The translations under genes and the position numbers were made by a program. Under the pieces are notes generated by a model that was given only the letters and a program-made list of their open reading frames with translations, did not search any database and was not told the origin of the DNA. From Acidimicrobiia bacterium (GTDB lineage: Bacteria; Actinomycetota; Acidimicrobiia; Spongiisociales; ZC4RG35): a DNA stretch of 64,000 nucleotides. Location of the stretch: assembly GCA_965203555.1 (NCBI GenBank), contig CBDBCY010000004.1, positions 320,001 through 384,000 on the forward strand, given 5' to 3'. Positions 1,083 through 57,233 of this stretch are shown here, piece after piece. Each line of letters starts with the position of its first letter. Positions within the stretch are counted from its first letter, which is position 1.

Positions 1083-1104
1083 ACACCGGGGGTCCTAACT
1101 CCTG

Positions 1105-2589: not shown

Positions 2590-2779
2590 CCAAGAACAGG
2601 GCAAGCGCCGCCGCAGATCAAAGGGCGGACCGGCGCCCGCCGACGGTGACTTGGGAGGGTTGGGGATGGCCCAGGTTGATTCGCAGAAGATAGACGATCT
2701 GCTGGATGAGATCGACAGCGTGCTGGAAGAGAACGCCGAGGAGTTCGTGAAGAATTACGTACAGAAGGGCGGGGAGTGA
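2582..2779 (+). CDS. pup: Prokaryotic ubiquitin-like protein Pup (GGE terminus)
   Basis: [28 protein letters not shown]. Confidence 0.97.
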
Positions 2780-3573
2780 CCGAACCGTCCAATTGGGGTC
2801 TGCCGCTTGGAGCCCCCTCCCCCGGCGCCAGTTTCTCCGATCTCCTGGAGTCGCTGGGATTGGCGCCCCGGTGGAACGTGCCCGACTCGCCGACCCGGAA
2901 CCTCCGTGCGCCGGAAGGCACTACCGTGCTGGCGTCCCGTTACCGGGACGGAGTGGTGCTGGGCGGAGACCGGCAGGCTACCGAGGGCCATCTGATCGCT
3001 CACCGCCGGATTCGGAAGGTCTATCCCTCCGACCGGATGTCGGCGATGGCGGTGGCGGGAACCGCCGGATTGGCCCTGGAGATGGTGCGATTGTTCAGCG
3101 TGGAATTGGAGCACTACGAGAAGATTGAAGGAGCGATGCTCAGCCTGGAGGGCAAGTCCAATTTCCTGGCGCGGCTGGTGAGAGCGCAATTGCCGCTGGC
3201 ATTCCAGGGTCTGGCGGTGGTGCCGTTGTTCGCCGGGTACGATCCGACCGCCGATCAGGGCAGGGTGTACACCTTCGACGTGGTGGGAGGGCGCTACGAA
3301 GAGCACGATTACGGCGCGGCCGGTTCGGGCGCCGTGCAGGCCCGTGCCTATCTGCGCACCGCCTGGAAGCCGGACATGATGGAGGACGAGGTGATCGAAA
3401 AGGTGATGGGCGCCCTGGTGGCCGCCGCCGACGTGGATGTCGCCACCGGCGGGCCCGATCTACGCAGGGGCATCCTGCCCAACCTGGTGGTAATCGACCG
3501 GGGCGGGGTCCGGGAAATCTCCGATGACCATCTGGCGGAGGTGGCAAGCGCCTCGATGAGGGAAGGCCAATGA
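2776..3573 (+). CDS. prcB: 20S proteasome beta subunit
   Basis: Propeptide followed by EG|TT cleavage site, GDRQAT, GSG; overlaps pup stop. Confidence 0.96.
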
Positions 3574-4259
3574 ACCCCGGGTTTTATGTCACGCCCGAGC
3601 AACTGGTGCGAGATCGCGCCGAATTCGCTCGCAAGGGAATCGCCCGGGGGCGGTCCATCCTGGCCATGGAGTACGAAAAAGGCGTCTTGATGCTGGCTGA
3701 GAACCCGGGAGGGGCACTCCACAAGATCAGCGAGGTGTATGACCGGATCGCCTTCGCCGGGGTGGGGCGTTACAACGAATTCGAGACCCTTCGCAAAGCG
3801 GGCATCCGCCAGGCCGACGTGATGGGATACCTGTACAGTCGCGACGATGTGACCGCCCTGGGTCTGGCCACTGCTTTTTCCCAGACCCTGGGAGTGATCT
3901 TCTCTCACGAGACGAAGCCGTTCGAAGTGGAGCTTCTCATATGTGAGTTGGGGAAGAACGGACAGCCCAACCAGATGTTGCAGATCAGCTACGACGGGAC
4001 CCTGTTGGAAGGTCGCGGGGTGATGGCTATCGGAGGCAAGGCCGAAACCTTGGGGGCGGGCTTGCGGGAACGCTATCGGGATGGCTTGACGTTGAATGCG
4101 GCCTTGCAACTGGGGATGGAGGTGTTCGCCGAGACTGAACGCCGACCTCTGGACGGATGGGAAGCGGCGGTGCTGGAGCGGGGACCGGCCAGACGTTGTT
4201 TCCGCCGACTGGCCGGTCCCGAGTTGGAGAGGGCAACCGAGCAAGCCCTCTCCTCCTAA
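3570..4259 (+). CDS. prcA: 20S proteasome alpha subunit
   Basis: FYVTPEQLVRDRAEFARKGIARGRS, LHKISEVYDRI. Confidence 0.96.
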   Translation: MNPGFYVTPEQLVRDRAEFARKGIARGRSILAMEYEKGVLMLAENPGGALHKISEVYDRIAFAGVGRYNEFETLRKAGIRQADVMGYLYSRDDVTALGLATAFSQTLGVIFSHETKPFEVELLICELGKNGQPNQMLQISYDGTLLEGRGVMAIGGKAETLGAGLRERYRDGLTLNAALQLGMEVFAETERRPLDGWEAAVLERGPARRCFRRLAGPELERATEQALSS

Positions 4260-4261
4260 GC

Positions 4262-5557
4262 TCAGGGAGTCAATGCTTCGGAGATGAGCCGAGCGTTGGT
4301 CACCAGCCACTTCGGATAAGTATCCGCCTCCGAGCCGGCGGGTCCCAGTGATCCGGTGTACAGTTCCACCACTCGCAGGGGAGGATCGAATTCGGCGGCA
4401 ACCGTTTCGGGAAGCCCGGTGCCGACGATGGTTTCGGTGAATATGGCCGTTACACCCTCCTCTCTGATCCGCTGGACCAGTTCCGCCAGATGGGCGGTGC
4501 CGGGTTGCGCCAGCGTGCTGCCACCCGAGAGAATGGTGTCCAGGATCTCGAAGTCGAAGAAGGCACCGAAGTAGGAGAAGGAGTCATGGTTGGTCACCAG
4601 TTTGCGGTGATCCGCAGGAACCGTTGACAGTAACTCTTCAGCCTCGGCGGTGGCGTCACGAATCCGAGCTATGTAGTCATCGGCTCTTTCGTTCCACTCT
4701 GAAGCTGAGGGACCCTTACCTATTTCGATCAGTTCCGCCGCAATGAGCTGCACTGCCGTTTCGACTCGGGAAGGATCGAACCAGAAGTGGGGATCGAACG
4801 CTCCGGCATGGGCGTGGGCGTGTTCGCCCTCTTCCTCGTGTTCACCTTCCTCGTGGGCGTGTTCGCCCTCTTCTTCGTGTTCACCTTCTTCGTGGGCGTG
4901 TTCGCCCTCTTCTTCGTGTTCACCTTCTTCGTGGGCGTGTTCGCCCTCTTCTTCGTGTTCACCTTCTTCGTGGGCGTGTTCGCCCTCTTCTTCGTGTTCA
5001 CCCTCTTCGTGGGCGTGTTCGCCCTCTTCTTCGTGTTCGCCCTCTTCGTGGGCGTGTTCGCCCTCTTCTTCGTGTTCACCCTCTTCCTCGTGTTCACCCT
5101 CTTCCTCGTGGGCGTGGCCGCCTCCGCCTTCGCCCCATTCCAGAGGATCAACAAAGTCGCCGACTTCCAGAATGCGGGCGCCGTCATCGCGAGCGGCATC
5201 GAACACCGCAATGAAACTCTCCTCCAACCCCAGACCGTTGGCCACCACAAGATCCGCCTCCCGGATCTTCACCCCGTCCTGGGATGACAACTGAAAGTCG
5301 TGAGGGTCGGCGCCGATCGGAAGCAATACCTCTACCGTGCCGTCCTCTCCGACCAGGCTCTTAACCAGATCACCCAGGATGGTGGTGGTAGCCACTACAT
5401 AGAGGGTGTCATCCGGTTCGACTGCGGTCGCCGATGGTTCCGCCGCCTCGGTAGAAGCTGTCTCGGAGGGAGCTTCCTCTCCGTTACCGCATGCGGCCGC
5501 CAACAACAACGTCGCCGCTAAGGCCGCCCACATCCTGACTTTTCCTGATTTTGGCAT
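4262..5557 (-). CDS. ZnuA/TroA-family metal ABC substrate-binding lipoprotein with long His/Glu-rich loop
   Basis: Lipobox LAAAC, VVATTTIL, GADPHDF, DPHFWFDP, TNHDSFSY; start placed at ATG 5557 after an AGGGG RBS. Confidence 0.9.
   Translation of the reverse strand: MPKSGKVRMWAALAATLLLAAACGNGEEAPSETASTEAAEPSATAVEPDDTLYVVATTTILGDLVKSLVGEDGTVEVLLPIGADPHDFQLSSQDGVKIREADLVVANGLGLEESFIAVFDAARDDGARILEVGDFVDPLEWGEGGGGHAHEEEGEHEEEGEHEEEGEHAHEEGEHEEEGEHAHEEGEHEEEGEHAHEEGEHEEEGEHAHEEGEHEEEGEHAHEEGEHEEEGEHAHEEGEHEEEGEHAHAHAGAFDPHFWFDPSRVETAVQLIAAELIEIGKGPSASEWNERADDYIARIRDATAEAEELLSTVPADHRKLVTNHDSFSYFGAFFDFEILDTILSGGSTLAQPGTAHLAELVQRIREEGVTAIFTETIVGTGLPETVAAEFDPPLRVVELYTGSLGPAGSEADTYPKWLVTNARLISEALTP
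4808..5117 (-). repeat. Coding tandem repeat, 39-nt unit (HAHEEGEHEEEGE x6 plus partial units)
   Basis: Unit tcgtgggcgtgttcgccctcttcttcgtgttcaccttct repeated head-to-tail without spacers. Confidence 0.95.
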
Positions 5558-10326: not shown

Positions 10327-12216
10327 ATGTGGCATGGTTGGTACGGGTACATGCGGAGCCTTGGAGAGTCTCCTCCTGCGGTAGATCGGAAGTTGTTGAG
10401 GAGGGTGGCAGGCTATGGGCGGCCCTACCTGACTCAACTGGTGGGGGTGCTGGTGACGGTAGTGGTCATCTCCGGGCTGTCGGTGGTTCCTCCCATCCTG
10501 ATACGGCTTCTGATCGACGAGGCGATACCGGAAGGAAATCTGGTGGCTCTCACCTGGCTGGGAGCGGGGATGGTGGCGGTCCCGGTGGTGAGCGCCGGGG
10601 TGGGCATCGTGCAGCGCTGGTGGTCCGCCCGGGCCGGAGAGGGCATCATCTTCGACCTGCGCCGGGGGCTCTACGCCCATCTGCAGCGCATGTCGCTGGG
10701 GTTTTTCACCAACACCCGCACCGGTGAACTCATTTCACGCATCCAAAGCGACGTAGTGGGCGCCCAGCACGCCATCACCGGCACCTTCGTCACCATCCTT
10801 TCCAATCTGGTGTCGGTGGCCGCCATCCTGACGGTGCTGATCGGCGCCGATTGGAGATTGACGCTGATGGCGGTGGCGGCGTTGCCGCTGTTCATCGCTC
10901 CCGCTCGACGGGTGGCGCGATCGCTGCGAGCGGTCACGGAACGCCAGATGAAACACAACGCCAACATGTCCTCCATCCTCCAGGAGACCTTCAACGTGTC
11001 GGGCGCCTTGCTGGTGAAGCTTTTCGACCGGGGCAGGCGCGAATTGGGGCGCTTTTCCGAGGAGGCGGCCGGGGTGCGGGACCTGGGCGTGAGAAGCGCT
11101 CTGATCGGTACCGGGTTCCAGGCCGCCATGGGAGCGATCAGCGCCCTGGGAACGGCGGCGGTGTTCTGGGTGGGTGGCTGGATGGTGATCGAAGGCCACA
11201 TCTCGCTGGGCACGGTGGTGATGTTCTCGACGCTTCTGGCCCAGCTCTACGGTCCGCTGACGGCTCTCTCCAACACACGGGTGGAGTTCGCCACCTCGCT
11301 GGTCTCCTTCGAGCGGGTATTCCAGGTTCTCGACATTGAACTGGATCTGCCCGAGGCTGCGGACGCACAGGATTTGAGCGATGTCTCCGGGGAACTCGAA
11401 TTCGACGGGGTGTGGTTCCAGTACCCCTCAGAACGGCTGGAGGGAATCGGCGCCGCCCGGCGCTTCACCCCCTGGGACACCCTGTCCCTGGAAGAGGACC
11501 TCGACGATCAGGGTCTGGTTTCCACACGGGAGTGGGCGCTTCGGGACATATCCTTTCGAGTTCCCCCCGGGGCGTTGGTGGCGGTGGTGGGACCGTCGGG
11601 CGCCGGCAAGACCACCCTGTCCTATCTGGTTCCCAGGCTGTACGAGGTGAACCGGGGAACGGTCAGCATCGACGGCCATGACGTGCGGGGTCTGACCTTC
11701 TCCGCCCTGGCCGCGGCGGTGGGAGAAGTGACACAGGAGACGTATCTGTTGCATGACACGATCGCCGCCAACCTGCGGTACGCGGCGCCCGAGGCCACCG
11801 ATGAGCAGTTGCTGGAGGCTTTGGAGACGGCCAATCTCACCGAACTGATCACCGCGCTGCCCAACGGCCTGGGCACTGTGGTGGGTGAACGGGGCTACCG
11901 GCTGTCGGGCGGCGAGAAACAGCGGGTGGCCATCGCCCGGGTGATCCTGAAGAACCCCGCCATCCTTATTCTCGACGAGGCCACCTCCCATCTCGACACC
12001 CGCTCCGAAGCCTTGATACAGGAGGCATTGGAACGCCTGATGAAGAAAAGAACCTCGCTGGTGATCGCCCATCGCCTCTCCACGGTCAAAGCGGCCGATC
12101 TGATCCTGGTGATCGACCGGGGACAGCTGGTGGAACACGGCACCCACCGCGAACTCCTTGATTTGGGGGGTCTGTACGCCACTCTCTATCAAACCCAGTT
12201 CCAGCCGGTCGGCTAG
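10327..12216 (+). CDS. ABC exporter, fused permease/ATPase
   Basis: TM region, GPSGAGKT, LSGGEKQR, ILDEATS, IAHRLST. Confidence 0.95.
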   Translation: MWHGWYGYMRSLGESPPAVDRKLLRRVAGYGRPYLTQLVGVLVTVVVISGLSVVPPILIRLLIDEAIPEGNLVALTWLGAGMVAVPVVSAGVGIVQRWWSARAGEGIIFDLRRGLYAHLQRMSLGFFTNTRTGELISRIQSDVVGAQHAITGTFVTILSNLVSVAAILTVLIGADWRLTLMAVAALPLFIAPARRVARSLRAVTERQMKHNANMSSILQETFNVSGALLVKLFDRGRRELGRFSEEAAGVRDLGVRSALIGTGFQAAMGAISALGTAAVFWVGGWMVIEGHISLGTVVMFSTLLAQLYGPLTALSNTRVEFATSLVSFERVFQVLDIELDLPEAADAQDLSDVSGELEFDGVWFQYPSERLEGIGAARRFTPWDTLSLEEDLDDQGLVSTREWALRDISFRVPPGALVAVVGPSGAGKTTLSYLVPRLYEVNRGTVSIDGHDVRGLTFSALAAAVGEVTQETYLLHDTIAANLRYAAPEATDEQLLEALETANLTELITALPNGLGTVVGERGYRLSGGEKQRVAIARVILKNPAILILDEATSHLDTRSEALIQEALERLMKKRTSLVIAHRLSTVKAADLILVIDRGQLVEHGTHRELLDLGGLYATLYQTQFQPVG

Positions 12217-13342: not shown

Positions 13343-13552
13343 ACGGGTTGATGTTAGACGCGTCCCGCCCGCGCAAGCCCGCACCGCCACGGCCTCGCCC
13401 GGGTGCTTCGTGGTCATTCGCCCCGGGGTGTTACACAGGCTCAAGCGCTCACTTCAGCCCGTTGACGCGAACCGAAGCACCATAGATTCAATGAACCTGG
13501 TCGGTTTTCCTGGCACAATCATTGCAATTCGAAGACCCGTAACCTTACGGTC

Positions 13553-14875
13553 ATGATTACAGAGAGGTCGGCCGTGGTGGCGGTGGTGGGCCGACCCAAC
13601 GTGGGCAAGTCCACCCTCATCAACCGGGTGATCGGTCGGCGAGAGGCTGTGGTCCAGTCCCAACCGGGTGTGACCCGTGATCGGCGGATCTTCCCGGCCA
13701 CCTGGGAGGACCGCCGGTTTCTTCTGGTGGACACCGGCGGCTGGGAGATGGATCCTTCCTCTCCCTTCTCGGGGGAGATACGCTTGCAGGCGGAGGCGGC
13801 GGTCAACGGAGCCGACGCGGTGTTGTTCGTGGTGGACGGCACGGCCGCTCTGGGAGATGATGACGAGGGTATGGCGGCGGTGGTCAAAAGAAGCGGGATC
13901 CCGGTGGTGGTGGCCGCCAACAAAATAGACAACCCCCACCGGGAGATGACCGTCTCCGACTACTGGACACTGGGGTTGGGAGAGCCCCATCCGGTCAGCG
14001 CCATTCACGGCAGAGGAGTGGGGGACCTGCTCGATCGGGTGCTGCAGGTCCTGCCCGACCAGGAGACCGCGCCACGGGACGAGCCTCCCCGGATCGCCAT
14101 CGTGGGACGTCCCAACACCGGCAAATCCACTCTGCTCAACCGTCTGTGCGGATCGCAACGGGTGATCGTCTCCAACGTACCCGGCACCACCCGCGACCCG
14201 GTGGACGTGGACGTGGATTTGGACGGAGTCACCTACCGCCTGGTGGACACCGCCGGAATCCGTCGTCGACCCAAGATAACCGAGGACGCCGACTACTACG
14301 CGGTGCTGAGAGCCCGGGACGCCTTGTCCCGCGCCGACGCGGCTCTGCTGGTGGTGGATTCCCTGGACGGCGCCACCTACCAGGACCAAAAGATCGCCAC
14401 TGCGGCGGTGGAGGCCGGAACCGCGGTGGTAGTGCTGCTCAACAAGTGGGACGCCATCGATCCCGAGCAGCGGGAACTCACCGAGAGATCCGTCCCAGCT
14501 CGCCTCGGATTCATCTCCTGGGCGCCGGTGCTGCGCATGTCCGCTCTGACGGGCGCCCGTGTGGGACGTCTGGGCGCAGCGGTGGAGATGGTGCTGGAGA
14601 ATGCCGAACAACGGGTCTCCACCGGAGAACTGAACCGGCTGGTAGCCGACTGGGTGGCCGCGCAACCACCCCCGCCCCGCAAGGGTCGTCGGTGCAGGAT
14701 CAGGTACGCGGTGCAAGTCGGAACCCGACCTCCCACCATCGTGCTGTTCACCGTGGGCGGGAAGCTGGCGCCCGAGTACATTCGATACTTGGAGAGGAAA
14801 CTTCGGGAACAATACGATCTGGTCGGCACCCCGGTCCGGTTCGTAACCCGCCGCAGAACGAGAGAATCGAAGTGA
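13553..14875 (+). CDS. der: Ribosome biogenesis GTPase Der (EngA)
   Basis: Two G domains: GRPNVGKS/DTGG/NKID and GRPNTGKS/DTAG/NKWD. Confidence 0.96.
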   Translation: MITERSAVVAVVGRPNVGKSTLINRVIGRREAVVQSQPGVTRDRRIFPATWEDRRFLLVDTGGWEMDPSSPFSGEIRLQAEAAVNGADAVLFVVDGTAALGDDDEGMAAVVKRSGIPVVVAANKIDNPHREMTVSDYWTLGLGEPHPVSAIHGRGVGDLLDRVLQVLPDQETAPRDEPPRIAIVGRPNTGKSTLLNRLCGSQRVIVSNVPGTTRDPVDVDVDLDGVTYRLVDTAGIRRRPKITEDADYYAVLRARDALSRADAALLVVDSLDGATYQDQKIATAAVEAGTAVVVLLNKWDAIDPEQRELTERSVPARLGFISWAPVLRMSALTGARVGRLGAAVEMVLENAEQRVSTGELNRLVADWVAAQPPPPRKGRRCRIRYAVQVGTRPPTIVLFTVGGKLAPEYIRYLERKLREQYDLVGTPVRFVTRRRTRESK

Positions 14876-18383: not shown

Positions 18384-18884
18384 ATGAGTGAGACTTACCG
18401 ACGCATCCTCGGCCTGCGGGCCATCCGCCAATACCAGGACCGCCCCGTCAGAGAGGAAGACCTCGACCGGGTGCTGGAAGCTGCCCGGTGGACGGGCAGT
18501 TCGAAGAACCGTCAGAACTGGTCGGTGGTCGTCATCCGCGACCGGGAGCAGATCGAGCGACTGGCCGGGTGCGGAGACTTCACCAGGCCTCTCGGGGCGG
18601 CGCCGGTGGCGCTGGCGCTCGTCCAGGAACCGCGGACCTATGAATTCGACACTGGACGCATGGCGCAGAATATCATGTTGGCGGCCGATGCTCTGGGCAT
18701 GGCCACCTGCCCCATCACCCTGCACCGGGACCATGACGCCGCCGCGGTCCTCGGGTTGCCGGCAGGTTGGCGCTGCCGTTACGCAATAGCGCTCGGATAC
18801 CCGGCCCCTTCCGCCCGCCCGGCCCGGTTCGGGGGTCGCAAACCGATTGGCGACATCCTCCATCAGGACACGTTCGGCCCATGA
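18384..18884 (+). CDS. Nitroreductase-family protein
   Basis: LRAIRQY, RWTGSSKNRQNW, FDTGRMAQNIMLAA, ALGYP. Confidence 0.9.
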   Translation: MSETYRRILGLRAIRQYQDRPVREEDLDRVLEAARWTGSSKNRQNWSVVVIRDREQIERLAGCGDFTRPLGAAPVALALVQEPRTYEFDTGRMAQNIMLAADALGMATCPITLHRDHDAAAVLGLPAGWRCRYAIALGYPAPSARPARFGGRKPIGDILHQDTFGP

Positions 18885-20560
18885 CTGCAGTCGCCCGCGC
18901 GCTGGCCGACGAGTACTGGCAGTTCCAACTCGAAAACCGCCACTTCGCCAACCTGGCCCGCGGGGAGTTGAGCCGCCTGGAACAGTGGGACGATCTCTCG
19001 GATGAAGGACGGTCGGCCTCCAGGGAAGCTTCACGCCGGTGCTCCCGCGATGCCGCCCGGATAACCGGTGAGGATGCCTCCGAGCGGATACTGGCACAGA
19101 CGGTGGCCGCAATCGCCTTCATGGATGCGACGGTGACAGTCTGGTGGCCGCAACTGCAGGCAGCCAATTCCCAGACCGGGCTGCTGAGCGCGATGCTTCC
19201 GGCGCTCCACTTCCAGCCCCTGGTCACCGCCGACCACGGCCGCCGGTATCTGGAAAAGCTGGGTCGTTTCCCGGCGATGATCGACCAGTTGGTGGACCGG
19301 TTGAAGGAAGGGGCCGCTGCCGGAGTGACACCCCTTACCCGCCACGTGCACCAGACCATGACGAAGCTCGACCAGGTCCTGGGTCGGCCATCGGTGGAAG
19401 ATCCGATCTCCACCCAACCAGCGCCCACCGAATTTTGCACGGTCGAGGCCAACCGGTGGCAGGCCGCGCTGGTGGAGGCGATCGAAAACGGCGTCCGGCC
19501 CGGCCTGGCCCGCTTCGAAGAGACACTTCGCCAGGTGACGCTTCCCGCCGGACGCCCCGACAACCGGGCCGGGCTGTGCCACCTTCCGGGTGGTGACGCG
19601 GTGTACCGCGACATGGTCCGGGGACACACGACCCTGGACTCCGAACCCGAGGCGATCCACCAGTTAGGCATGGAGAGAGTCGAGTTGCTGGAGGATGAAT
19701 ACCGGCGCATCGCCGGACCGCTACTCGACATCACTGATGTCTCTGACATCTACAGTCGCCTGCGTGACGATCCGCAACTGCGGTACGCCAACTCCGAGGA
19801 TCTGGTGAAGGACGCGCTCGGTTGCCTCGACAAAGCCACCGCCGCGATGGGAGAAAGGTTCGACCCGACCCCCAGGGCGCCCTGCCTGGCCGACCCGATC
19901 GATGTTGGCGCCATGGCCTACTACTACCCGCCCACCGCCGACGGAACAAGACCGGGCCGCTTCTTCTTCAACGTTGCCGACCCGACTGCCTGGACCACGT
20001 TTCAAGTTCCCGCCGTGGCCTACCACGAAGGCATACCTGGCCACCACCTCCAGATGGCCCTGGCTATCGAGAACACCGAGATCCACGACATACACCGCAA
20101 CTCCTACCTGCCGGCTTTCGGTGAAGGATGGGGTCTGTACAGCGAACGCCTCTCCGACGAGATGGGCCTGTACGCCGACGATTGGGAGAGGATCGGAATG
20201 CTCACCGCCGATTCGCTGCGCGCCGGGCGGCTGGTGGTGGACACCGGCATCCACGCGCTGGGCTGGTCACGCACCAAGGCAATCGAATTCATGGCCAACC
20301 ATTCGCCCATGTCTCTTCACGAGGTCACCGAGGAGATCGACCGGTACATCGCCTGCCCCGGCCAAGCACTCTCATACATGCTCGGACGCCTAGAGATCGA
20401 GTCCCTGCGCGCCGAGGCTGAATCACTGCTGGGGACGGCGTTCGACATCAAGGGGTTCCACAGAACGGTCCTCGGCAACGGCGCCGTTTCACTGAGCACT
20501 CTCCGTACCGTGGTCCGTGAGTGGGTGGACTCACACCGAGGAGTCCACAGGCGTGTTTAG
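18881..20560 (+). CDS. DUF885-family protein (metallopeptidase-like)
   Basis: YHEGIPGHHLQ, AFGEGWGLYSE, RLVVDTGIH, EIDRYIACPGQALSYMLG. Confidence 0.9.
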   Translation: MTAVARALADEYWQFQLENRHFANLARGELSRLEQWDDLSDEGRSASREASRRCSRDAARITGEDASERILAQTVAAIAFMDATVTVWWPQLQAANSQTGLLSAMLPALHFQPLVTADHGRRYLEKLGRFPAMIDQLVDRLKEGAAAGVTPLTRHVHQTMTKLDQVLGRPSVEDPISTQPAPTEFCTVEANRWQAALVEAIENGVRPGLARFEETLRQVTLPAGRPDNRAGLCHLPGGDAVYRDMVRGHTTLDSEPEAIHQLGMERVELLEDEYRRIAGPLLDITDVSDIYSRLRDDPQLRYANSEDLVKDALGCLDKATAAMGERFDPTPRAPCLADPIDVGAMAYYYPPTADGTRPGRFFFNVADPTAWTTFQVPAVAYHEGIPGHHLQMALAIENTEIHDIHRNSYLPAFGEGWGLYSERLSDEMGLYADDWERIGMLTADSLRAGRLVVDTGIHALGWSRTKAIEFMANHSPMSLHEVTEEIDRYIACPGQALSYMLGRLEIESLRAEAESLLGTAFDIKGFHRTVLGNGAVSLSTLRTVVREWVDSHRGVHRRV

Positions 20561-35160: not shown

Positions 35161-35397
35161 CGGCGGTCCTGAGGTGACGCGGGAATCCAAAGAGTGGCAA
35201 GGTTTGCCACGACTCCGGCCCACTTTTGTCATCGCCCGAGTATTAAGGTTCCTTGCGTGGGACCGTTTCCATAGCGGTGGTTGTCGCTATGGAGTACGCA
35301 CCTGACATCATGGTTCGGGATCAAGCAGGACAGACGACACGGCCGACACAACCTCAGGCTCAAAGGATGGTACGGACCATATGACCGCGGGAGAAAG

Positions 35398-36714
35398 ATG
35401 AGTGAGAGACGCACTCCGATGACGGGGCAGGGCTTGACCAGGGTTGAGGCTTTGCGCTATAAGTCCCTAAGGTACGTCTCCCAACCGTTGGGGCCTTTCC
35501 AGGTTCTGGTGGGTCCCAACGCCAGCGGGAAGTCGAACCTCCTGGACGTACCGGCGTTTCTCGGTGATGTGCTCCGCTCCGACCTGGCCACCGCCGTTCT
35601 GGGTGATGAACGTCTCGGGGTTCCTTTCCGGACCACCGACGCCCGAAAGCTCACATGGATGGGTGAGGGAGACTCCTTCGAATTGGCCGTGGAAATGGCA
35701 ATCCCACCGGACCGACAGCAGCCCCTGCCCAGGCTGTCCGGATCTCATAACGGCTACTCGCATTGTCGTTATGAGGTGGCGGTGGAGGTTGCTGGAACTC
35801 CCCGGTTTCTGGCGGAAACACTGTGGCTCATTCCTGCCAGGCCGATCCCTTCCGTTCAGCGATCTCTGTTTCCCATGCCTCTTGAGCCAATGCCGAACAT
35901 AGTCAGAACGCCAGGTAAGAAGGCTCCGCCGGGTTGGAAAAAAGTCGTTTCCCGCAGTGACTATCCCGAACGGGTCATGTTCAGCGACGAGAAGACCAAG
36001 TGGCGAAACCACTTCCGCATCTCGGCCCGAGAGTCTGCGCTGGCAAGCCTCCCCGCTGATGAAGACCGCTTCCCGGTTGCCCTCTGGATGAGAAGGACGC
36101 TGGGTAGCGTCCAGAGGATCGTTTTGTCGAGCGAAGCCATGCGGAGACCATCGTCACCGGTGCGACGGCAGGGTTACCTTCCTGACGGCTCCAATCTTCC
36201 CCACGTTGTCGTCGGCATCGAACGCGGACATCCGGAACAGTTTCGACGTTGGATCGAGCATGTCAAAGAGGCACTGCCGGACATCGTCGCACTAACAACC
36301 AGCGAGCGTCAGGACGATCGGCACCGCTATCTGGTGGTCAAATACAAAAACGGCCTGGCGGCGCCCTCCTGGCTGGTTTCAGACGGAACACTTCGATTGC
36401 TGGCCCTGACCTTGCTGGCCTACCTGCCTAAAGTCACCGGCACCTATCTCATAGAGGAGCCAGAGAATGGTGTCCATCCCCATGCCCTCCAGAACATATT
36501 CCAGTCGCTGGCGTCCGTCTACGGCGCCCAAGTCCTGCTTACCACCCATTCGCCGTTGCTGACGCGTTTGACCAGGCTGGATCAACTTCTCTGCTTAGCT
36601 CGCTCCGAAGAGGCGGGCACTGACATCGTTTTGGGACATGAGCATCCTGTCCTGCGGGAGTTGGGAGGGGAGATAGATCTGGGCACTCTGCTGGCCAGCG
36701 GCCTGCTCGGATGA
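35398..36714 (+). CDS. ABC/AAA_21-type ATPase, MAD3-like (defence-associated)
   Basis: GPNASGKS, SDGTLRLL, LIEEPENGVHP, TTHSP. Confidence 0.8.
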   Translation: MSERRTPMTGQGLTRVEALRYKSLRYVSQPLGPFQVLVGPNASGKSNLLDVPAFLGDVLRSDLATAVLGDERLGVPFRTTDARKLTWMGEGDSFELAVEMAIPPDRQQPLPRLSGSHNGYSHCRYEVAVEVAGTPRFLAETLWLIPARPIPSVQRSLFPMPLEPMPNIVRTPGKKAPPGWKKVVSRSDYPERVMFSDEKTKWRNHFRISARESALASLPADEDRFPVALWMRRTLGSVQRIVLSSEAMRRPSSPVRRQGYLPDGSNLPHVVVGIERGHPEQFRRWIEHVKEALPDIVALTTSERQDDRHRYLVVKYKNGLAAPSWLVSDGTLRLLALTLLAYLPKVTGTYLIEEPENGVHPHALQNIFQSLASVYGAQVLLTTHSPLLTRLTRLDQLLCLARSEEAGTDIVLGHEHPVLRELGGEIDLGTLLASGLLG

Positions 36715-51661: not shown

Positions 51662-51687
51662 CTGTGCCAACCGTATACTCGGCCGCT

Positions 51688-52338
51688 ATGGCGCAGAGGA
51701 AACCCAGAAGGAGACAACCGGCCAGAGGCAGAGTGCCGCCCGGCAAGCCTTCCGGTCGCAAACGCAAACCCAAGTCGCCTCCGCGCCACGCCCGGGGCGC
51801 GGCCGGTTCGGCGGCGGTTTCCCCCAGTCGGGCGCCCAAATACAAGAAAGGCGACTACGTGGTCCACATCCAGCATGGGGTGGCCCACATCTCCGACATC
51901 CAGACCAAGACCGACTTCGGCGAAGAACAGGAATACTTCGTTTTGAACTTTCCTACCGAAGAGATGGTGATCAGCGTCCCGACCAACAAGACTCTTTTCA
52001 CCATTCGCCCCCTGATCAACAAGACCGAGGCGGCCCGGGTTGTCCGAAAACTCAAAGAAGAACCCCAGGAGTCGGGCGCTAACTGGAGTCGCTGGTACAA
52101 AGTGCTACAGGAAAAGATGTACTCGGGAGACATCTTCCAAGTGGCGGAAGTCGTGAGAGACCTCAACTATTCGAACCAGACCAAAGGTATCTCGCCGGCG
52201 CTGAAAAAGATGCTCAACCGGGCCCGGAGCGCTTTGATAACCGAAGTCCGTTTTTCGCTGGGTCTGGACGCCGAAGCTGCTGAAACGAAGATCAACCGGG
52301 CACTGCCCACTTTTGAGCCTATATCCCGCAAGAAATGA
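51688..52338 (+). CDS. carD: CarD-family RNA polymerase-binding factor with basic N-terminal extension
   Basis: YKKGDYVVHIQHGVAHI, NWSRWYK, AEVVRDL; TATACT 8 nt before ATG. Confidence 0.88.
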   Translation: MAQRKPRRRQPARGRVPPGKPSGRKRKPKSPPRHARGAAGSAAVSPSRAPKYKKGDYVVHIQHGVAHISDIQTKTDFGEEQEYFVLNFPTEEMVISVPTNKTLFTIRPLINKTEAARVVRKLKEEPQESGANWSRWYKVLQEKMYSGDIFQVAEVVRDLNYSNQTKGISPALKKMLNRARSALITEVRFSLGLDAEAAETKINRALPTFEPISRKK

Positions 52339-52826
52339 CCGTCGCTCACCCGGAGTGGCGGGTGGGATGGGGAATAGATGCCCATCGGTTTGGGGCGGAT
52401 CCCCCGGTGCTGCTGGCCGGGGTTGAGGTTGATCTACACCGGGGGGTGGTGGCCACCTCCGACGGAGACGTCGTGGCACATGCTGTAACCGACGCGGTGC
52501 TGGGCGCCGCCGCGCTGGGAGATATCGGGACCCACTTTCCGTCGTCGGATCCCCGGTGGGAGAATGCTGACAGCATGCAGATGCTGGCTCGGGTGAAGCA
52601 GATGGCGGAGGCGGCCGGGTGGAAGCCTTCTTTCTGCGACATCACGGTGATCGCCCAATCCGTTAGGGTCGCGCCCCATCGCGGGGCGGTCCGGGAGGCC
52701 CTGGCCAGTGTGCTGGATATACGCTTGGATCAGGTATCGGTCAAGGCCACCACCACCGACAGCCTGGGTTGGCTGGGCCGCGATGAAGGTATCGCGGCGA
52801 CTGCTTCGGTCAGCTTGATCAGATGA
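52335..52826 (+). CDS. ispF: 2-C-methyl-D-erythritol 2,4-cyclodiphosphate synthase
   Basis: GIDAHRF, SDGDVVAHA, GDIGTHF, VSVKATT. Confidence 0.94.
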   Translation: MTVAHPEWRVGWGIDAHRFGADPPVLLAGVEVDLHRGVVATSDGDVVAHAVTDAVLGAAALGDIGTHFPSSDPRWENADSMQMLARVKQMAEAAGWKPSFCDITVIAQSVRVAPHRGAVREALASVLDIRLDQVSVKATTTDSLGWLGRDEGIAATASVSLIR

Positions 52827-52956
52827 ACGCCGTCTCCGCGGTCATCCCCACTACCCGTGACGATACGCCACTTCAGTCTGGCCTCCACGCAAAACCAGAC
52901 GTCGCCGGGGCCAGCGGTTCCCGACCATCCCTCCGTGACCTAACATCGACGGTGCC

Positions 52957-54381
52957 TTGAGGATTTTCGACACTCTGAAACGGGCGCCTGTCGCACTTGA
53001 ACCGGTCGCCCCACCCCGGATCGGGATGTACGTCTGCGGGCCTACCGTTCAATCGGCCCCGCATGTCGGCCATGGCCGCTCGGCGGTGGTCTTCGATCTG
53101 GTCCGGCGTTACCTGGTCTGGAAGGGGTTTTCGGTCCGTTTCGTACGCAACATAACCGATGTGGACGACAAGATCATTGCCATCGCCAACCGGGAGGGGG
53201 TCCCTCCCGAGAAGCACGCCGTGCGGATCACCGGGGAGTTCACCCGCGGCTACCGGGATCTGGGAGTGGCGGATCCCGACGTGGAGCCGAAGGCAACCGA
53301 GCACATCGCAGACATGATCGACCTCATAGAACGGCTGATAGAAAAAGGTTTGGCCTACCCACGGGACGGGGATGTGTATTTCGTGGTGCGGTCCATGCCC
53401 GGTTACGGGAAACTGTCGGGTCACAATCTCGACGATCTCGTGGCCGGCGCCCGGGTGGAGGTGTCGGAAAGCAAAGACGACCCCTTGGACTTTGCCCTGT
53501 GGAAGCAGGCCAAGCCCGGAGAACCACACTGGACTTCACCGTGGGGCGAGGGCCGACCAGGTTGGCATATCGAATGCTCAGCCATGGCGGCCCGGTATCT
53601 GGGTGAGACCTTCGATATCCACGGGGGAGGCAGCGACCTGATCTTTCCCCACCACGAGAACGAGATTGCCCAGTCGGAGAGCGCCAACGGCCGGCCGTTC
53701 GCCCGGATTTGGATGCACAACGGGATGCTCAACCTGGGCGGGGAGAAAATGTCCAAGTCGACCGGTCACCTGGTGGATCTCAACGAAGCCAACCGGAGGT
53801 TCGGAGGCCTGGCGGTCCGACTTTTCTATCTTCAGGCCCATTACCGGTCTCCCCAGGAGTTCTCTTCAGAACTGCTGGAGGACGCCCGGGCGGCGCTGGA
53901 GCGCCTGCACCGGCTCCTTCAGAAGACCTCCGACGGGCATGCGTCGTCCGATCCGGGGACAATAGCGGCCTTCAAGGAGGCCATGGATGACGACTTCGCC
54001 ACCCCCCGCGCCCTGGGGGTGCTATTCACCGCCGTGCGGCAGGCGAACCGGGAGTTGGAGCTTTCGGGGACCGGTGGCTCGAAGGCGGCGGCGGTGTGGG
54101 AGATGGCGCGGGTGTTGGGCCTGGACGACATCTCCTCCACAGGATCCGACCCGGTCGAGACAGGTAACCAACTGCGGGCCTCGGTCGCCGTCCTCGCCGC
54201 CAAAGAGGAAACCGACCGCTCTCCACACCTGGCGGTCATGATGGAGTCGCTTCTGACAAAACGTACCAACGCCCGTTCGACAGGTGATTACGCAACGGCC
54301 GATCGGATCCGGGACAGTCTCGCCGGCCTGGGGATCGTGCTGGAGGACTCCCGGGATGGCACCAGCTGGATACGGCCGTAG
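52957..54381 (+). CDS. cysS: Cysteine-tRNA ligase
   Basis: YVCGPTV, HVGH, PGWHIECSAM, FPHHENE, KMSKS. Confidence 0.96.
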   Translation: MRIFDTLKRAPVALEPVAPPRIGMYVCGPTVQSAPHVGHGRSAVVFDLVRRYLVWKGFSVRFVRNITDVDDKIIAIANREGVPPEKHAVRITGEFTRGYRDLGVADPDVEPKATEHIADMIDLIERLIEKGLAYPRDGDVYFVVRSMPGYGKLSGHNLDDLVAGARVEVSESKDDPLDFALWKQAKPGEPHWTSPWGEGRPGWHIECSAMAARYLGETFDIHGGGSDLIFPHHENEIAQSESANGRPFARIWMHNGMLNLGGEKMSKSTGHLVDLNEANRRFGGLAVRLFYLQAHYRSPQEFSSELLEDARAALERLHRLLQKTSDGHASSDPGTIAAFKEAMDDDFATPRALGVLFTAVRQANRELELSGTGGSKAAAVWEMARVLGLDDISSTGSDPVETGNQLRASVAVLAAKEETDRSPHLAVMMESLLTKRTNARSTGDYATADRIRDSLAGLGIVLEDSRDGTSWIRP

Positions 54382-55108
54382 AGTCGAAGGTATCGCGGCC
54401 GTAAAGGCGGCGCTGGCCGCCGGCCGGGTAGAGCGGCTGCAGGTGTCCCGCGGCCATTCCAATCCCCGGCTGGCCGTCCTGATCGACTTCGCCCGGGACC
54501 GGGGAGTGAATGTCAAGCAGGTGGAAAACCTTGAAGGCGTGGCCGTCACCTCCACCCCCCAGGGGGTGGTCGCCGATTGCCGACTCATCCGGCCGGTGAC
54601 CCTCTCGCAATTGGTCCTGGAGTCAGAACCGGCGTCGCTGATGGTGGTCGATCACGTAACCGATCCTCGCAACCTGGGAGCTATCGCCCGAAACGCGGTT
54701 GCCGCCGGGACGCCTCGCCTAGTCATTCCCCGTCGGAGGGGATCTCCCCTGACCCCCACAGCGTTCAAGGCGGCGGCCGGGGGCTTGGAGAGTACCCGCG
54801 TGTGCCTGGTCTCGTCGATCCCCGAAACGCTGCGCCGTCTCTCCCAGATGGGTGTCTGGACGGTAGGGCTGGCTGCTCAGGCGTCCCAGTCATTATTCGG
54901 ACTGCAGTTGTTGACCGACCCGGTCGCCATGGTGGTCGGCGCTGAGCACCGAGGACTCTCCCGGCTGGTCATCGACCGCGTCGATCAACTGGCGTCAATC
55001 CCCATGGTCCCCGGATCCGAAAGCCTCAACGCCTCGGTGGCGGCCGGGTTGGCGCTGTTCGAGTTGGCTCGGATGCGCAGGTACTTCGACAAACCTCCGC
55101 CGGATTGA
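54356..55108 (+). CDS. rlmB: 23S rRNA Gm2251 methyltransferase (TrmH/SPOUT)
   Basis: VTDPRNLGAIAR, VGAEHRGL, SLNASVA; follows cysS. Confidence 0.88.
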   Translation: MAPAGYGRRVEGIAAVKAALAAGRVERLQVSRGHSNPRLAVLIDFARDRGVNVKQVENLEGVAVTSTPQGVVADCRLIRPVTLSQLVLESEPASLMVVDHVTDPRNLGAIARNAVAAGTPRLVIPRRRGSPLTPTAFKAAAGGLESTRVCLVSSIPETLRRLSQMGVWTVGLAAQASQSLFGLQLLTDPVAMVVGAEHRGLSRLVIDRVDQLASIPMVPGSESLNASVAAGLALFELARMRRYFDKPPPD

Positions 55109-55141
55109 TCTGTGAAGTGCTACGATTCCGGTCGCAAACCC

Positions 55142-55215
55142 GCTGGCGTAGCTCAGACGGCCAGAGCAGCTGATTTGTAATCAGCAGGTCGTGGGTTCGA
55201 GTCCCACCGCCAGCT
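55142..55215 (+). tRNA. tRNA-Thr (TGT)
   Basis: GCTGGCG acceptor, GCTGA-TTTGTAA-TCAGC arm, GGTTCGAGTCC; TACGAT upstream. Confidence 0.95.
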
Positions 55216-55236
55216 CCGACGACAAGAGTAAAGAGT

Positions 55237-55602
55237 GGACATATTTACTTGGGTTGACGGTTGGGTCGCAAAGCCTGGCAAGCCGGTGTCCCGTATGTGA
55301 GGGTGGGCACCAGGCACATATCCACCGACTGCTCCGTCTGCGGGCACCGACAGCCCATGCCCCTGCGCCAGCGGGGTATTCCAGTACGGACGCTGCGGGC
55401 TGGAACTGGACAGGGATGTGAACGCCGCAAGAAAACATAGGCGCTCGAGCCTTCGGCACGGGGTCGGGAGGGACTTTCCCGACGCGCCCAGCAAACCTCC
55501 GACGCAAGACGACCACCACCCTCGGACGGTATATCGCCAACGGACATCGCAGAACAGCATCACCCGGGTAGACAACCCCCGTCAATCCAGGCATATATGT
55601 CC
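55237..55602. mobile_element. MITE-like element with 24-bp imperfect terminal inverted repeats carrying a tnpB fragment
   Basis: GGACATATTTACTTGGGTTGACGG (55237-55260) vs reverse complement of 55579-55602 GGACATATATGCCTGGATTGACGG (20/24); TAAAGA on both flanks. Confidence 0.65.
55261..55570 (+). pseudogene. tnpB: 3' fragment of TnpB (zinc ribbon + RuvC-III) with two +1 frameshifts
   Basis: KAWQAGVPYVRV..ISTDCSVCGHRQPMPLRQR|VFQYGRCGLELDRDVNAAR|NI. Confidence 0.8.
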
Positions 55603-55728
55603 CTAAAGAAAACAAAAAAGCTTCGGGTGGCGATATCCTACCGAGAGGATGCCCAAACGACTGCTACACATTATTCTTCCCGGACCACAGCACTCTGCCG
55701 CAGATGGGTTCCCACCTGAGGGCCTTGC

Positions 55729-56328
55729 ATGAGGGGTCGCCACGCCGCCCCGGGATGGTCTCCCTTCTGGCGTGACATACTGTTGCGATCCATCCTGGCT
55801 CTGCTGCTCGTCGCCATGGCAGTGTTCATCTGGTGGCTCTTCTCCGAGGATGATCTGTTCACCAACACGGTCGCCACCACTTCCGAGACGGCGCCCACCA
55901 CTTCCGAGACGGCGCCCACCACTTCCGAGGCAGCGCCCACCACCACCGCGGCGCCCACCACCACCGCCACCGACGCTGCTGCCGAAACCACCACGTCCAC
56001 CACTGCCCCGCCAACTACCACCACCAGCACCGCTCCGCCACTACTGGAACCAGCCGATCTGGTGGTCAAGGTCTACAACGCCAACGGAGTAGCCGGGATT
56101 GCGGGTAGAACCACCGCCCGTTTGGAGGAGGCGGGGTACGGAGTGGGAAGTCCGGACAATCATCCCCAGTTCCTCGATATCTCCCGGGTGTGGTACCGGG
56201 AGGGCCTCCAGCGGGAGGCCCAGCAACTCCAGGAAACACTGGTTTCCGACGCCTTGGTGGAGCCTATTCCACAGGAGCAGGAGGGGATTGACATCATGGT
56301 GATTCTGGGCCGCTCGTTCGAGGAGTGA
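55729..56328 (+). CDS. LytR C-terminal domain membrane protein with Thr-rich stalk
   Basis: TM helix, TTSETAP repeats, VKVYNANGVAGIAG..L..GY, IMVILG. Confidence 0.85.
   Translation: MRGRHAAPGWSPFWRDILLRSILALLLVAMAVFIWWLFSEDDLFTNTVATTSETAPTTSETAPTTSEAAPTTTAAPTTTATDAAAETTTSTTAPPTTTTSTAPPLLEPADLVVKVYNANGVAGIAGRTTARLEEAGYGVGSPDNHPQFLDISRVWYREGLQREAQQLQETLVSDALVEPIPQEQEGIDIMVILGRSFEE
55876..55938 (+). repeat. Coding 21-nt tandem repeat x3 (TTSETAP)
   Basis: ACCACTTCCGAGACGGCGCCC twice plus one variant copy. Confidence 0.9.
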
Positions 56329-57233
56329 TACCCACCGATCAACCCCCCGAGCAAAGAACAGGCGCCTGGCGGTTGATCGGCGCCTCTTTTGCCCTCCTGC
56401 TGCTGGGAACGGGGGTTCGGCTCGTATCTCCGGCCATCTTCTTGGACATCGCATCACTGTGGCCGGTCGTAGCGGGACTTTTGGCGGCGGGATGGGTGGT
56501 GAAGAGAATATGGTCGGACCGGCCGATCGCAGGCGCTCCTCTCATTCCCCTCTTGATCTTCTCATGGTTGGTGATCTCGGCTTCGTTCTATTTTGCAGAC
56601 CTGCCGGGCCTCCCCTCCAGCAGCCCCGACCTGCGGGGCCCACCGCCCGGTCCGAGTGACCTCAACACTTTCACGTTGGAAATGGATGAGGGACGCTTGG
56701 TCGTCGGCGAGGGAACAGGTCCGTCGGCCTACCAGGTGGCAGTTACCCGAGACGGAGGCAGGGCGGGGACCCCTGTGGCATTGGAAACTCTCAGGGAAGG
56801 CGGGGGCGCGATAAGGATTATCGATGCCAGGGCGCCACTGCCCCCCGATCTTGATCTCACCGTGACGGACAACGGTTGGCTGCGCTTCGGCGGCTGGGAA
56901 GTCGGACTGCATCCCCAAGCCACGTGGGAACTTACCTTGTCCGCCCCTGAAATCTCAGCAGAGCTGGAGACTCTCCAGATCTCGGCTCTGCAGGTGACCG
57001 GCGATGGCACGCTCAGGGTGGGGGAGGTAGCCGGCCCCGTGGAGATAGCGGTAAACGGCTCGTTCACCGTGGAAGTTCCCGAACAAACTCCGGTGGAAGT
57101 GGTGGGAGCGGCGATCGTTCCGGAGGACTGGACGGTAGAACAGGACATGGCCTGGTCGGGTGAGCGTGGGGCCGGCTGGCACATCGTGGTTGCTGAAGAA
57201 GGATCGGTCCAGATTCTCATTTTCAACGAATAA
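56325..57233 (+). CDS. Hypothetical membrane protein (three N-terminal TMs, beta-rich C-terminal domain)
   Basis: Overlaps the upstream stop; hydrophobic N-terminus with LWPVV; plausible protein composition. Confidence 0.7.
   Translation: MIPTDQPPEQRTGAWRLIGASFALLLLGTGVRLVSPAIFLDIASLWPVVAGLLAAGWVVKRIWSDRPIAGAPLIPLLIFSWLVISASFYFADLPGLPSSSPDLRGPPPGPSDLNTFTLEMDEGRLVVGEGTGPSAYQVAVTRDGGRAGTPVALETLREGGGAIRIIDARAPLPPDLDLTVTDNGWLRFGGWEVGLHPQATWELTLSAPEISAELETLQISALQVTGDGTLRVGEVAGPVEIAVNGSFTVEVPEQTPVEVVGAAIVPEDWTVEQDMAWSGERGAGWHIVVAEEGSVQILIFNE

Follow-up and report, generated by a model that had tools for sequence, protein, structure and literature searches.

The 64-kb stretch of Acidimicrobiia DNA analysed here (the window; 62.6% G+C) carries, shortly after a tRNA-Thr gene, a 367-bp element in which inverted repeats enclose a fragment of tnpB, the gene of the RNA-guided nuclease TnpB. 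With a probability of roughly 0.85, this element is a single, old, non-autonomous internal-deletion derivative of an insertion sequence that carries tnpB only, and it has since decayed and is most likely functionless. Full-length tnpB copies from other Acidimicrobiia are bounded by the same family of terminal inverted repeats (TIRs) and flanked by 8-bp target-site duplications (TSDs). Their arrangement is that of a TIR/TSD-type transposon and not that of IS605 or IS607, and the original prediction, which derived the element from a DDE-type transposon with tnpB as cargo, was right in outline.

The predicted 24-bp inverted repeat around a segment of about 366 bp is borne out at 55237-55602, where the two arms are complementary at 20/24 positions (83%) and lie 318 nt apart. 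A degenerate pattern derived from both arms finds only two matches in the window, and two matches were reached in none of 100 dinucleotide shuffles. The TAAAGA repeat that had been noticed outside the arms is also present (55229-55234 and again 55604-55609), although the duplication itself is 8 bp long rather than 6 bp and identical at 6/8 positions. Its register was taken from the family rule, which places the TSD in the 8 nt that adjoin the terminal G of GGGRC on its outer side. The features of the element and its border are as follows, with family loci from other genomes numbered L001 to L078 and omegaRNA standing for the guide RNA of TnpB.

55142-55217, plus strand: tRNA-Thr, anticodon UGU (ARAGORN; Rfam tRNA, 72.3 bits)
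55228, plus strand: G 5' of the left duplication (sequence; the same position is G in 29/32 family insertions)
55229-55236, no strand: left 8-bp TSD TAAAGAGT (sequence and family rule, one terminal G presumed lost)
55237-55260, plus strand: left TIR GGACATATTTACTTGGGTTGACGG (20/24 with the right arm; repeat family of the left ends of full-length tnpB copies)
55261-55269, plus strand: left subterminal remnant TTGGGTCGC (GGGTCGC 7-mer after the left repeat in L035, L036 and L044; blastn start points)
55270-55571, plus strand: tnpB 3' remnant, about the last 100 codons (translations; tblastn with the TnpB of L005, L009 and L001; alignment; phmmer)
55425-55603, plus strand: omegaRNA-like structured region, overlapping the tnpB 3' end and running to the last base of the element (covariance model R1, 133.2 bits, with the window in the seed alignment; family covariation)
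Between 55483 and 55484, plus strand: site of a 5-nt deletion (GCGAU in relatives) that corresponds to the 5' pseudoknot strand (model-based alignment; the sole row gapped in helix 5)
55579-55603, minus strand: right TIR, reading inward GGGACATATATGCCTGGATTGACGG, including the terminal C at 55603 (inverted-repeat search; comparison of ends); its arm 55579-55602 is CCGTCAATCCAGGCATATATGTCC
55604-55611, no strand: right 8-bp TSD TAAAGAAA (sequence and family rule; 6/8 with the left copy)

The interior of the element is a tnpB 3' remnant that runs over three frames (LGRKAWQAGVPYVRVGTRHISTDCSVCGHRQPMPLRQR, then VFQYGRCGLELDRDVNAAR, then NIGARAFGTGSGG...) to the original stop codon at 55569-55571. 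That only the 3' end of the gene is left, broken by two single-base expansions, was confirmed against 36 aligned relatives, among which the window alone has the extra base in GGGG (55373-55376) and in AAAA (55432-55435), each a +1 frameshift. The remnant retains the RuvC-III motif DRDVNAA, while RuvC-I and RuvC-II are deleted, so the window copy has no intact open reading frame (ORF) with the residues of all three. The zinc knuckle named in the original prediction survives in part: CSVCG is there, but the first Cys of the second CxxC pair has become Tyr (TAC at 55385-55387 versus TGC or TGT in relatives). Identity as TnpB follows from phmmer with the fragment (17 matches at E<=1e-3 among 1.84 billion representative proteins, the best at 3e-14) and from tblastn of the full-length TnpB of L005 against the window (E=1.8e-22). 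It does not follow from Pfam on the fragment, where PF07282 was hit by one of three pieces below the cut-off (E=6.7e-4; 20.2 versus 26.3 bits), which is weak alone. By phmmer and tblastn, the fragment is significantly similar to the zinc-ribbon/RuvC-III region of TnpB. The only full-length phmmer match, P0015 (446 aa), is itself a genuine TnpB. It carries PF07282 (1.2e-24) and PF01385 (2.1e-13), reaches 198 bits with NCBIfam guided_TnpB, where the cut-off is 100, and matches ISDra2 TnpB structures at E=7e-19.

Most of the database proteins that match the fragment are short, with 15 of the 17 (P0001-P0017) below 300 aa. Several have the C-terminal motifs TDATEQY, NSIEQQAA, GHRRTV and SQNSIT in common in different frames, so many public 'proteins' of the family are fragments of pseudogenes or wrong-frame translations of that conserved RNA-coding part. 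This sharing across frames suggests conservation at the DNA level. A homology search for longer proteins with a 60-aa frame piece gave 15 candidates and no significant one. Against plasmids, blastn of the window element at a distant setting found no match, and tblastn of the fragment gave matches at E>=0.4 only, some of them under TnpB annotations. An intact tnpB is absent from the 64-kb window.

The parent family was recovered as 78 loci by scanning species-representative genomes with an alignment of 12 proteins. L001-L047, from metagenome-assembled genomes (MAGs) of Acidimicrobiia, 'Candidatus Spongiisociaceae' and 'OM1', encode proteins 44-65% identical to P0015, these genomes holding several each; at L048-L078 the identity is 30-42%, and the sources are Paracoccaceae, Ktedonobacteria and others. 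The organism behind the window is related to the MAGs of the first group, since window positions 3-5398 are 77.8% identical to L039 over 5436 nt and 80.4% identical to L040 over 3180 nt. Window positions 55100-55750 gave 62 blastn alignments with the loci, the best to L005 (75.1% over 345 nt). Those that cover the remnant begin at 55261, 55269 or 55291 (among the 43 beginning at its left edge, 21 at 55269, 12 at 55261-55262 and 10 at 55291); those at the right end finish at 55597-55613, and others earlier, many at 55561. Based on these starting points, the left arm lies outside the tnpB-internal homology, and it matches the left ends of full-length copies instead. The full-length copies are bounded by G-GGRCTTATATACCTGGGTTGAC, starting GGGRCTTATA, with the left repeat 55-80 nt 5' of the tnpB start and the right repeat directly after the stop. 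The 22-nt repeat core occurs at 81 sites in the loci and the window. Paired ends with at least 7/8 identical 8-nt flanks number 33, corresponding to 32 independent sites, 28 of them at 8/8 and 4 at 7/8. Full units measure 1352-1468 bp and contain tnpB only, with a TnpB of about 400-446 aa. Related ends (GGGAATTACATAC... in L048) with 8/8 duplications are also found in the Paracoccaceae loci L048, L053 and L054, at 34-37% protein identity, which indicates that the arrangement is old. The other distant relatives (L055-L078, 30-38% identity) gave no such repeats with an 11-mer seed, except for a 45-nt repeat in L067. Distant blastn against plasmids returned only tnpB-internal matches of about 80 nt for the Paracoccaceae element of L048 and only chance-level matches for the 45-nt left end of L009.

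These ends bear directly on the reading of the element as an ordinary IS605/IS607-type remnant, in which a core deletion left the tnpB 3' end, the inverted repeat is chance or a subterminal hairpin, and TAAAGA is a target or transposon-associated motif (TAM) together with an element-end motif. TnpB is classically borne by IS605 and IS607, core deletions that turn tnpB transposons into palindrome-associated transposable elements (PATEs) are documented (PMC3119063), and the lack of repeats in L055-L078, L067 excepted, would fit such an origin. The full-length relatives, however, carry the same repeats with variable 8-bp duplications at 32 sites, and IS605 and IS607 make neither (PMC13565253). 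The Y1 TnpA and subterminal hairpins of IS200/IS605 and the serine recombinase TnpA of IS607 both go with ends that lack repeats and duplications. No element contains a Y1 or serine recombinase gene, the gap from left repeat to tnpB being only 55-80 nt, and P0015 falls below the NCBIfam cut-offs for IS200_TnpB (129.8 versus 425) and IS607_TnpB (99.8 versus 350). An IS605/IS607 origin is thus very unlikely. Parents in the form of ordinary IS605/IS607 elements free of these repeats had been named as what would speak against the original prediction, and this did not occur. The arms could also be thought of as the two strands of a long-range omegaRNA stem, the 5' arm lying inside tnpB and the 3' arm beside the guide. 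While TnpB guide RNAs do have long-range and pseudoknot pairings (PMC10711439) and the right arm does belong to the conserved RNA, the match to the left arm in the relatives is found 1.3 kb away at the extreme left of the element, before the tnpB start codon, inverted and beside the duplication, and such a stem is scarcely credible.

From a tnpB-only transposon as the parent, the window copy would have arisen by internal deletion. Behind the left arm, 55261-55269 is similar to GGGTCGC, the 7-mer next to the left repeat in L035, L036 and L044, and tnpB-derived DNA then begins with AAAGCCTGG, so that about 1 kb would have been lost between the left subterminal region (around 55269) and tnpB codon ~335. 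The product would have joined about 33 nt of the left end to the last ~335 nt at a junction near 55269/55270. Microhomology (GTYGAC) was dropped as the cause of the deletion after the junction had been placed there. Both arms begin with GGACATAT where relatives have GGACTTAT, and this shared derived start points to one subfamily as the source of both. Later decay would then explain the divergence of the repeats (20/24) and of the duplication (6/8), the two frameshifts, the Cys-to-Tyr change in the zinc finger and a 5-nt deletion in a pseudoknot. The transposase that moves the family in trans would be a TSD-generating (DDE-type) one whose gene lies elsewhere. Other deletion derivatives occur in the family: one of 520 bp (L005, 2279-2798), which is 96.4% identical to a full copy at element positions 1020-1408 and 94.2% at positions 10-148, and one of 727 bp with an 8/8 duplication (L028, 9942-10668). 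In addition, there are 5'-truncated fragments in L014 (532 bp) and L009 (953 bp).

The window copy shares with the miniature inverted-repeat transposable elements (MITEs) of DDE insertion sequences its shortness (367 bp), its inverted repeats and target duplication, and the absence of an intact gene, and in this sense the earlier label 'MITE-like' holds. There is no sign of the amplification that goes with the name, with one decayed copy seen in the 64 kb of the window. Its interior clearly stems from the cargo gene of the parent, and a matching transposase was not found.

Fragments of the family litter these genomes. In L013 (9866-11964), one tnpB element (10588-11964, 8/8 duplication AAAGAAAA) is nested within another, whose left repeat lies at 9866. 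L027 contains two solitary right-end relics, at 13434-13589 (minus strand) and 18998-19132, which face outward, score 26.6 and 37.3 bits with the RNA model described below, and are separated by 5.5 kb of housekeeping genes (GreA-like, MgtE-like and NAD synthetase-like by sequence). The repeat pair at 13435/19131 was accordingly rejected as one unit. Within the window, the 10-mer GGACTTATAG at 35457-35466 (minus strand) was set aside as chance, as it lies inside an ORF and has no model match; the sequence of this ORF (35281-36714, 477 aa) suggests an AAA-type ATPase, and an ORF of 198 aa comes after it.

The retained segment is also where the original prediction expected the omegaRNA to lie, and family covariation indicates that the 3' end of these elements encodes an omegaRNA-like structured RNA, with expression and TnpB binding both putative. 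In an alignment of the last 180-330 nt, CAGAACAG is invariant, and the hairpins vary in sequence while their pairing is kept. Six helices were set by hand, followed by realignment with a covariance model. P1 closes the hairpins P2 and P3 (the latter of two helices), P4 closes a variable hairpin, and a helix GCGAU/AUCGC crosses P1 and so forms a pseudoknot. In the MAFFT alignment (27 distinct rows), 88.0% of cells pair, versus 32-46% when the partners are slid, and 86 cells show double changes, versus 6-20 when slid, a value reached in 0/500 shuffles. The model-based alignment (40 distinct rows), which leans towards the model, gives 90.9% versus 31-45% and 138 versus 3-19 double-change cells, again reached in 0/500 shuffles. 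For the pseudoknot helix, which is not part of the model, 97.4% of cells pair and 4/5 pairs covary. A second pseudoknot between the P3 loop GGGAC and the terminal GUCCC is weakly supported (87% paired, 7 double-change cells, 4/500 shuffles). The covariance model R1 has 182 positions and finds 46 matches at E<=1e-18 in the window and the 47 loci, the strong ones scoring 85.6-186.6 bits at the 3' end of tnpB copies; the single match in the window is the region 55425-55603. The RNA overlaps the last ~180 nt of full elements, and the right repeat forms its 3' end. The covariance folding proposed for this part of the element thus supports a structure at the level of the family. TnpB and Fanzor guide RNAs likewise overlap the 3' end of their gene, contain a pseudoknot and end at or in the transposon end (PMC10711439).

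Two other approaches to the structure were abandoned: RNAalifold on the MAFFT alignment returned 13 pairs only, because helix registers differ among subfamilies, and a crude column-pair covariation scan gave mostly noise from G-U pairs. Over 54500-56500, Rfam found only the tRNA and a spurious antisense match, and no family for the structured RNA. L012 contains, at ~11100-11190, a tandem duplication of about 50 nt in the RNA-coding region that repeats the DRDVNAA codons and the first hairpin (alignment columns 344-394).

Whether the window copy could still act as a guide-RNA cassette, with the flank TAAAGAAAACAAAAAAGC... as its guide, has to be weighed against its state. It retains the whole modelled RNA region (133.2 bits), and all three short TIR-bounded derivatives (the window copy, L005 2279-2798 and that of L028) keep the 3' RNA end. 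A promoter and terminator scan around the element found no such site, and with no terminator-like site between tRNA and element, read-through from the tRNA may occur. In IS605, moreover, some PATEs encode omegaRNAs that are used in trans (PMC10055086). On the other hand, the window is the only one of the 40 rows without the 5' strand of the best-covarying helix, which the deletion between 55483 and 55484 removed while the 3' partner AUCGC was retained at 55546-55550. Hairpin P2 has an A.A mismatch, so not all helices are intact, and the right repeat has diverged. The frameshifts, the 6/8 duplication and the 75% identity to the nearest copy speak for neutral decay. There is no tnpB in the 64 kb to use such a guide, and the fold energy of 55400-55640 as a single sequence is not unusual (z = -0.78). 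Three of three derivatives are too few to argue for selection, and a relic in L026 lacks about 190 nt of the RNA part. The cassette proposed originally is therefore unlikely, and a decayed deletion derivative remains the preferred explanation of the window copy.

Several points weigh against this explanation. Elsewhere in the genome of the window there may be further short copies, from a genuine MITE amplification, or an intact parent whose ends are GGACATAT. No empty tRNA-Thr allele was seen, and no search aimed at empty alleles was made. The register of the left duplication assumes that one G was lost from the terminal GGG run of the window copy. The RNA score lies within the range of full copies, although the window was part of the seed alignment, and most of the RNA is still there; we infer its loss of function. 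Likewise, we infer a DDE-type mover from the repeats and the duplication only.

Target choice was evaluated at the 32 independent insertion sites, which fall in L002-L054, with the loci oriented by tnpB. The duplications are 78% A+T (199/256 positions) versus about 37% in the surrounding DNA; positions 1 and 2 are each A or T in 31/32 sites, and A is more frequent than T on the tnpB strand. The base 5' of the left duplication is G in 29/32 sites (binomial p = 4.8e-12 against 31.5% G), while at the mirror position, behind the right duplication, C stands in only 7/32 (p = 0.91). The window fits this signature with G at 55228 followed by TA. Transposases that act as symmetrical complexes usually have palindromic target preferences. 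As the loci were oriented by tnpB, the G keeps to the direction of tnpB and its RNA, the only oriented parts of the element. If the guide is the sequence after the right repeat, made up of duplication and flank, a G before the empty site versus the invariant terminal C of the element at the occupied site would be coherent with a one-base TAM-like discriminator, a role for the G that is putative. Perhaps, then, these bacteria contain a family in which TnpB/omegaRNA homing is coupled to a transposon of the cut-and-paste type whose ends are inverted repeats and whose 8-bp duplications vary, as a prokaryotic counterpart of the Fanzor-only TIR elements. Its scaffold would end in the right repeat, its guide would start with the duplicated 8-mer, and the orientation-specific G would be a one-base TAM telling empty (G) from occupied (C) sites. 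The partner transposase would come from a family not yet linked to TnpB, possibly an ISL3-like one. This proposal is tentative, and we consider it rather doubtful as a whole.

No DDE transposase was found between the ends of the tnpB elements, or sharing them, in the window or the 47 Acidimicrobiia loci. The search for a partner covered these loci (~0.95 Mb) together with the window. It clustered their 1298 ORFs of 220 codons or more, applied Pfam to 26 candidates and considered TIR and TSD pairs up to 12 kb apart. A DDE transposase was present in 0/32 TIR/TSD-bounded units, and the full units have no room for a second gene. Of the DDE-type element with tnpB cargo that had been predicted, the inverted repeats, the 8-bp duplications and an intact tnpB between the same ends were thus recovered on full-length relatives, but not the DDE transposase inside. 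Nor is one present in the large TIR/TSD units of L037 (8.7 kb), L042 (10.1 kb) and L053 (4.9 kb), whose additional DNA consists of cargo or nested elements. All that the search yielded was an ISL3-family transposase, one IS110 and three tandem tyrosine recombinases nested in L053.

The ISL3-family transposase (PF01610, 3.8e-61; NCBIfam transpos_ISL3, 296.5 bits) occurs in L046, L047, L010 and L019, and ISL3 insertion sequences stand alongside tnpB elements in at least three MAGs. Copies lie at 18650-19999, 13626-14325 and 16181-16509 of L046, at 20427-21222 of L047, and at ~1450-3170 of L010 and L019. Their ends (GGCTTCGCGATATGTTGGGATT and variants) are only loosely like those of the tnpB elements (GGGGCTTATATACCTGGGTTGAC): both contain GGCTT...ATAT...TGGG(A/T)T, but spacing and sequence differ, and no ISL3 gene lies between GGGRCTTATA ends. 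Clear repeats were not found around the ISL3-like gene of L019, and the ISL3 transposase is absent from the 64-kb window. ISL3 elements and the tnpB family have 8-bp direct repeats in common (described for ISAeme19; PMC12554700), and an ISL3-like partner is a weak lead. For the IS1595 family, whose ends the original prediction had found loosely similar, an 8-bp target duplication would fit as well. IS1595 elements carry a DDNK/DDEK transposase, and none turned up in the search.

Two of the large units represent one insertion at the same site in two related genomes (L037 1962-10640 and L042 521-10628), 8.7-10.1 kb long with the 8/8 duplication TATTCTAT. A left repeat forms one border, and a 5'-truncated tnpB (residues ~236-410) with a right repeat forms the other. 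The genes in between look ordinary and encode a luciferase-like monooxygenase, parts of an ABC transporter, an M20 peptidase and an alcohol dehydrogenase, with an IS110 transposase in L042. The unit is either a derivative that carries cargo or an insertion that has been rearranged. In the Paracoccaceae unit L053 6275-11194, whose duplication AAATGATG is 8/8, the space between left repeat and tnpB is occupied by a tandem of three tyrosine-recombinase genes (Phage_integrase x3), which looks like an element with a recombinase trio nested in the tnpB element.

That TnpB occurs in inverted-repeat transposons is already known since 2023, and its confinement to IS200/IS605 and IS607, as assumed in the original prediction, is outdated. 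Altae-Tran et al. (PNAS 2023, PMC10691335) described six DDE-linked TnpB branches (DDE-1 to DDE-6) with inverted terminal repeats and solo tnpB genes between near-identical ends. The tnpB family shares with these the symmetrical inverted ends, a tnpB 3' end less than 250 bp from the transposon end, and tnpB-only units that are presumably moved in trans. A DDE transposase between or sharing the ends is absent from the window and the 47 loci. The account of the DDE-linked branches in that paper makes no mention of an asymmetric G ahead of the duplication. According to a 2026 review, the DDE partners of TnpB are ISL2, IS630 and IS1031 and the pairing is rare in prokaryotes; the review asks what TnpB gains from it (PMC13565253). 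At the level of main texts, a literature search turned up no paper that pairs TnpB with ISL3 or with a duplication of 8 bp; the supplements of PMC10691335 may list the family. The duplications of ISL2 and IS1031 (IS5 family) and of IS630 are 2-3 bp long, in contrast to the 8 bp seen here. Possibly new, then, are the 8-bp duplication and the orientation-specific G before the target.

Among known systems, the Fanzor-only TIR/TSD elements of eukaryotes and viruses, such as that of Spodoptera frugiperda ascovirus, come close: they are non-autonomous, have only a nuclease between their inverted repeats, produce duplications, and include the right repeat in the guide-RNA scaffold (PMC10711439). The tnpB family differs from them in being bacterial, in encoding a typical TnpB and in having an RNA with a covarying pseudoknot. 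As its 8-bp duplication is variable, this is not a fixed part of the scaffold. PATEs, which are core-deleted tnpB elements derived from IS200/IS605, resemble the window copy as protein-less internal-deletion remnants that keep their ends (PMC3119063). The window copy also keeps the guide-RNA region and has inverted repeats and a duplication, whereas PATEs are described with subterminal palindromes and with neither of these.

The tRNA-Thr gene ends 11 nt before the left duplication and 19 nt before the inverted repeat and has the same orientation as the remnant. The predicted adjacency is thus confirmed, but only 2/47 loci have a tRNA gene 40 nt or less from the end of an element (tRNA-Asn in L026, tRNA-SeC in L028). 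An association with tRNA genes is therefore not a trait of the family and the position incidental; the site would rather reflect the preference of the family for AT-rich intergenic 8-mers preceded by G. Upstream, at 51664-55108, translations indicate a CarD-like regulator, IspF, cysteinyl-tRNA synthetase and a TrmH/SpoU-type RNA methyltransferase, a gene order typical of actinobacteria.

For its host, the window copy is most likely a dead relic of no effect, and its value is that of a pointer to the parent family. This family is present in multiple copies in marine and sponge-associated Acidimicrobiia, with relatives in Paracoccaceae, and in it tnpB and the region of its putative guide RNA ride on a transposon with inverted repeats and 8-bp duplications. 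With dozens of copies and exact duplications, it provides material for the question of what TnpB gains in DDE-type transposons. It also offers a covarying pseudoknotted RNA that includes the right repeat, together with an asymmetric target signature that is unexpected of a symmetrical transposase. If the G is indeed a TAM, TnpB homing would become testable in a transposon that makes target-site duplications.

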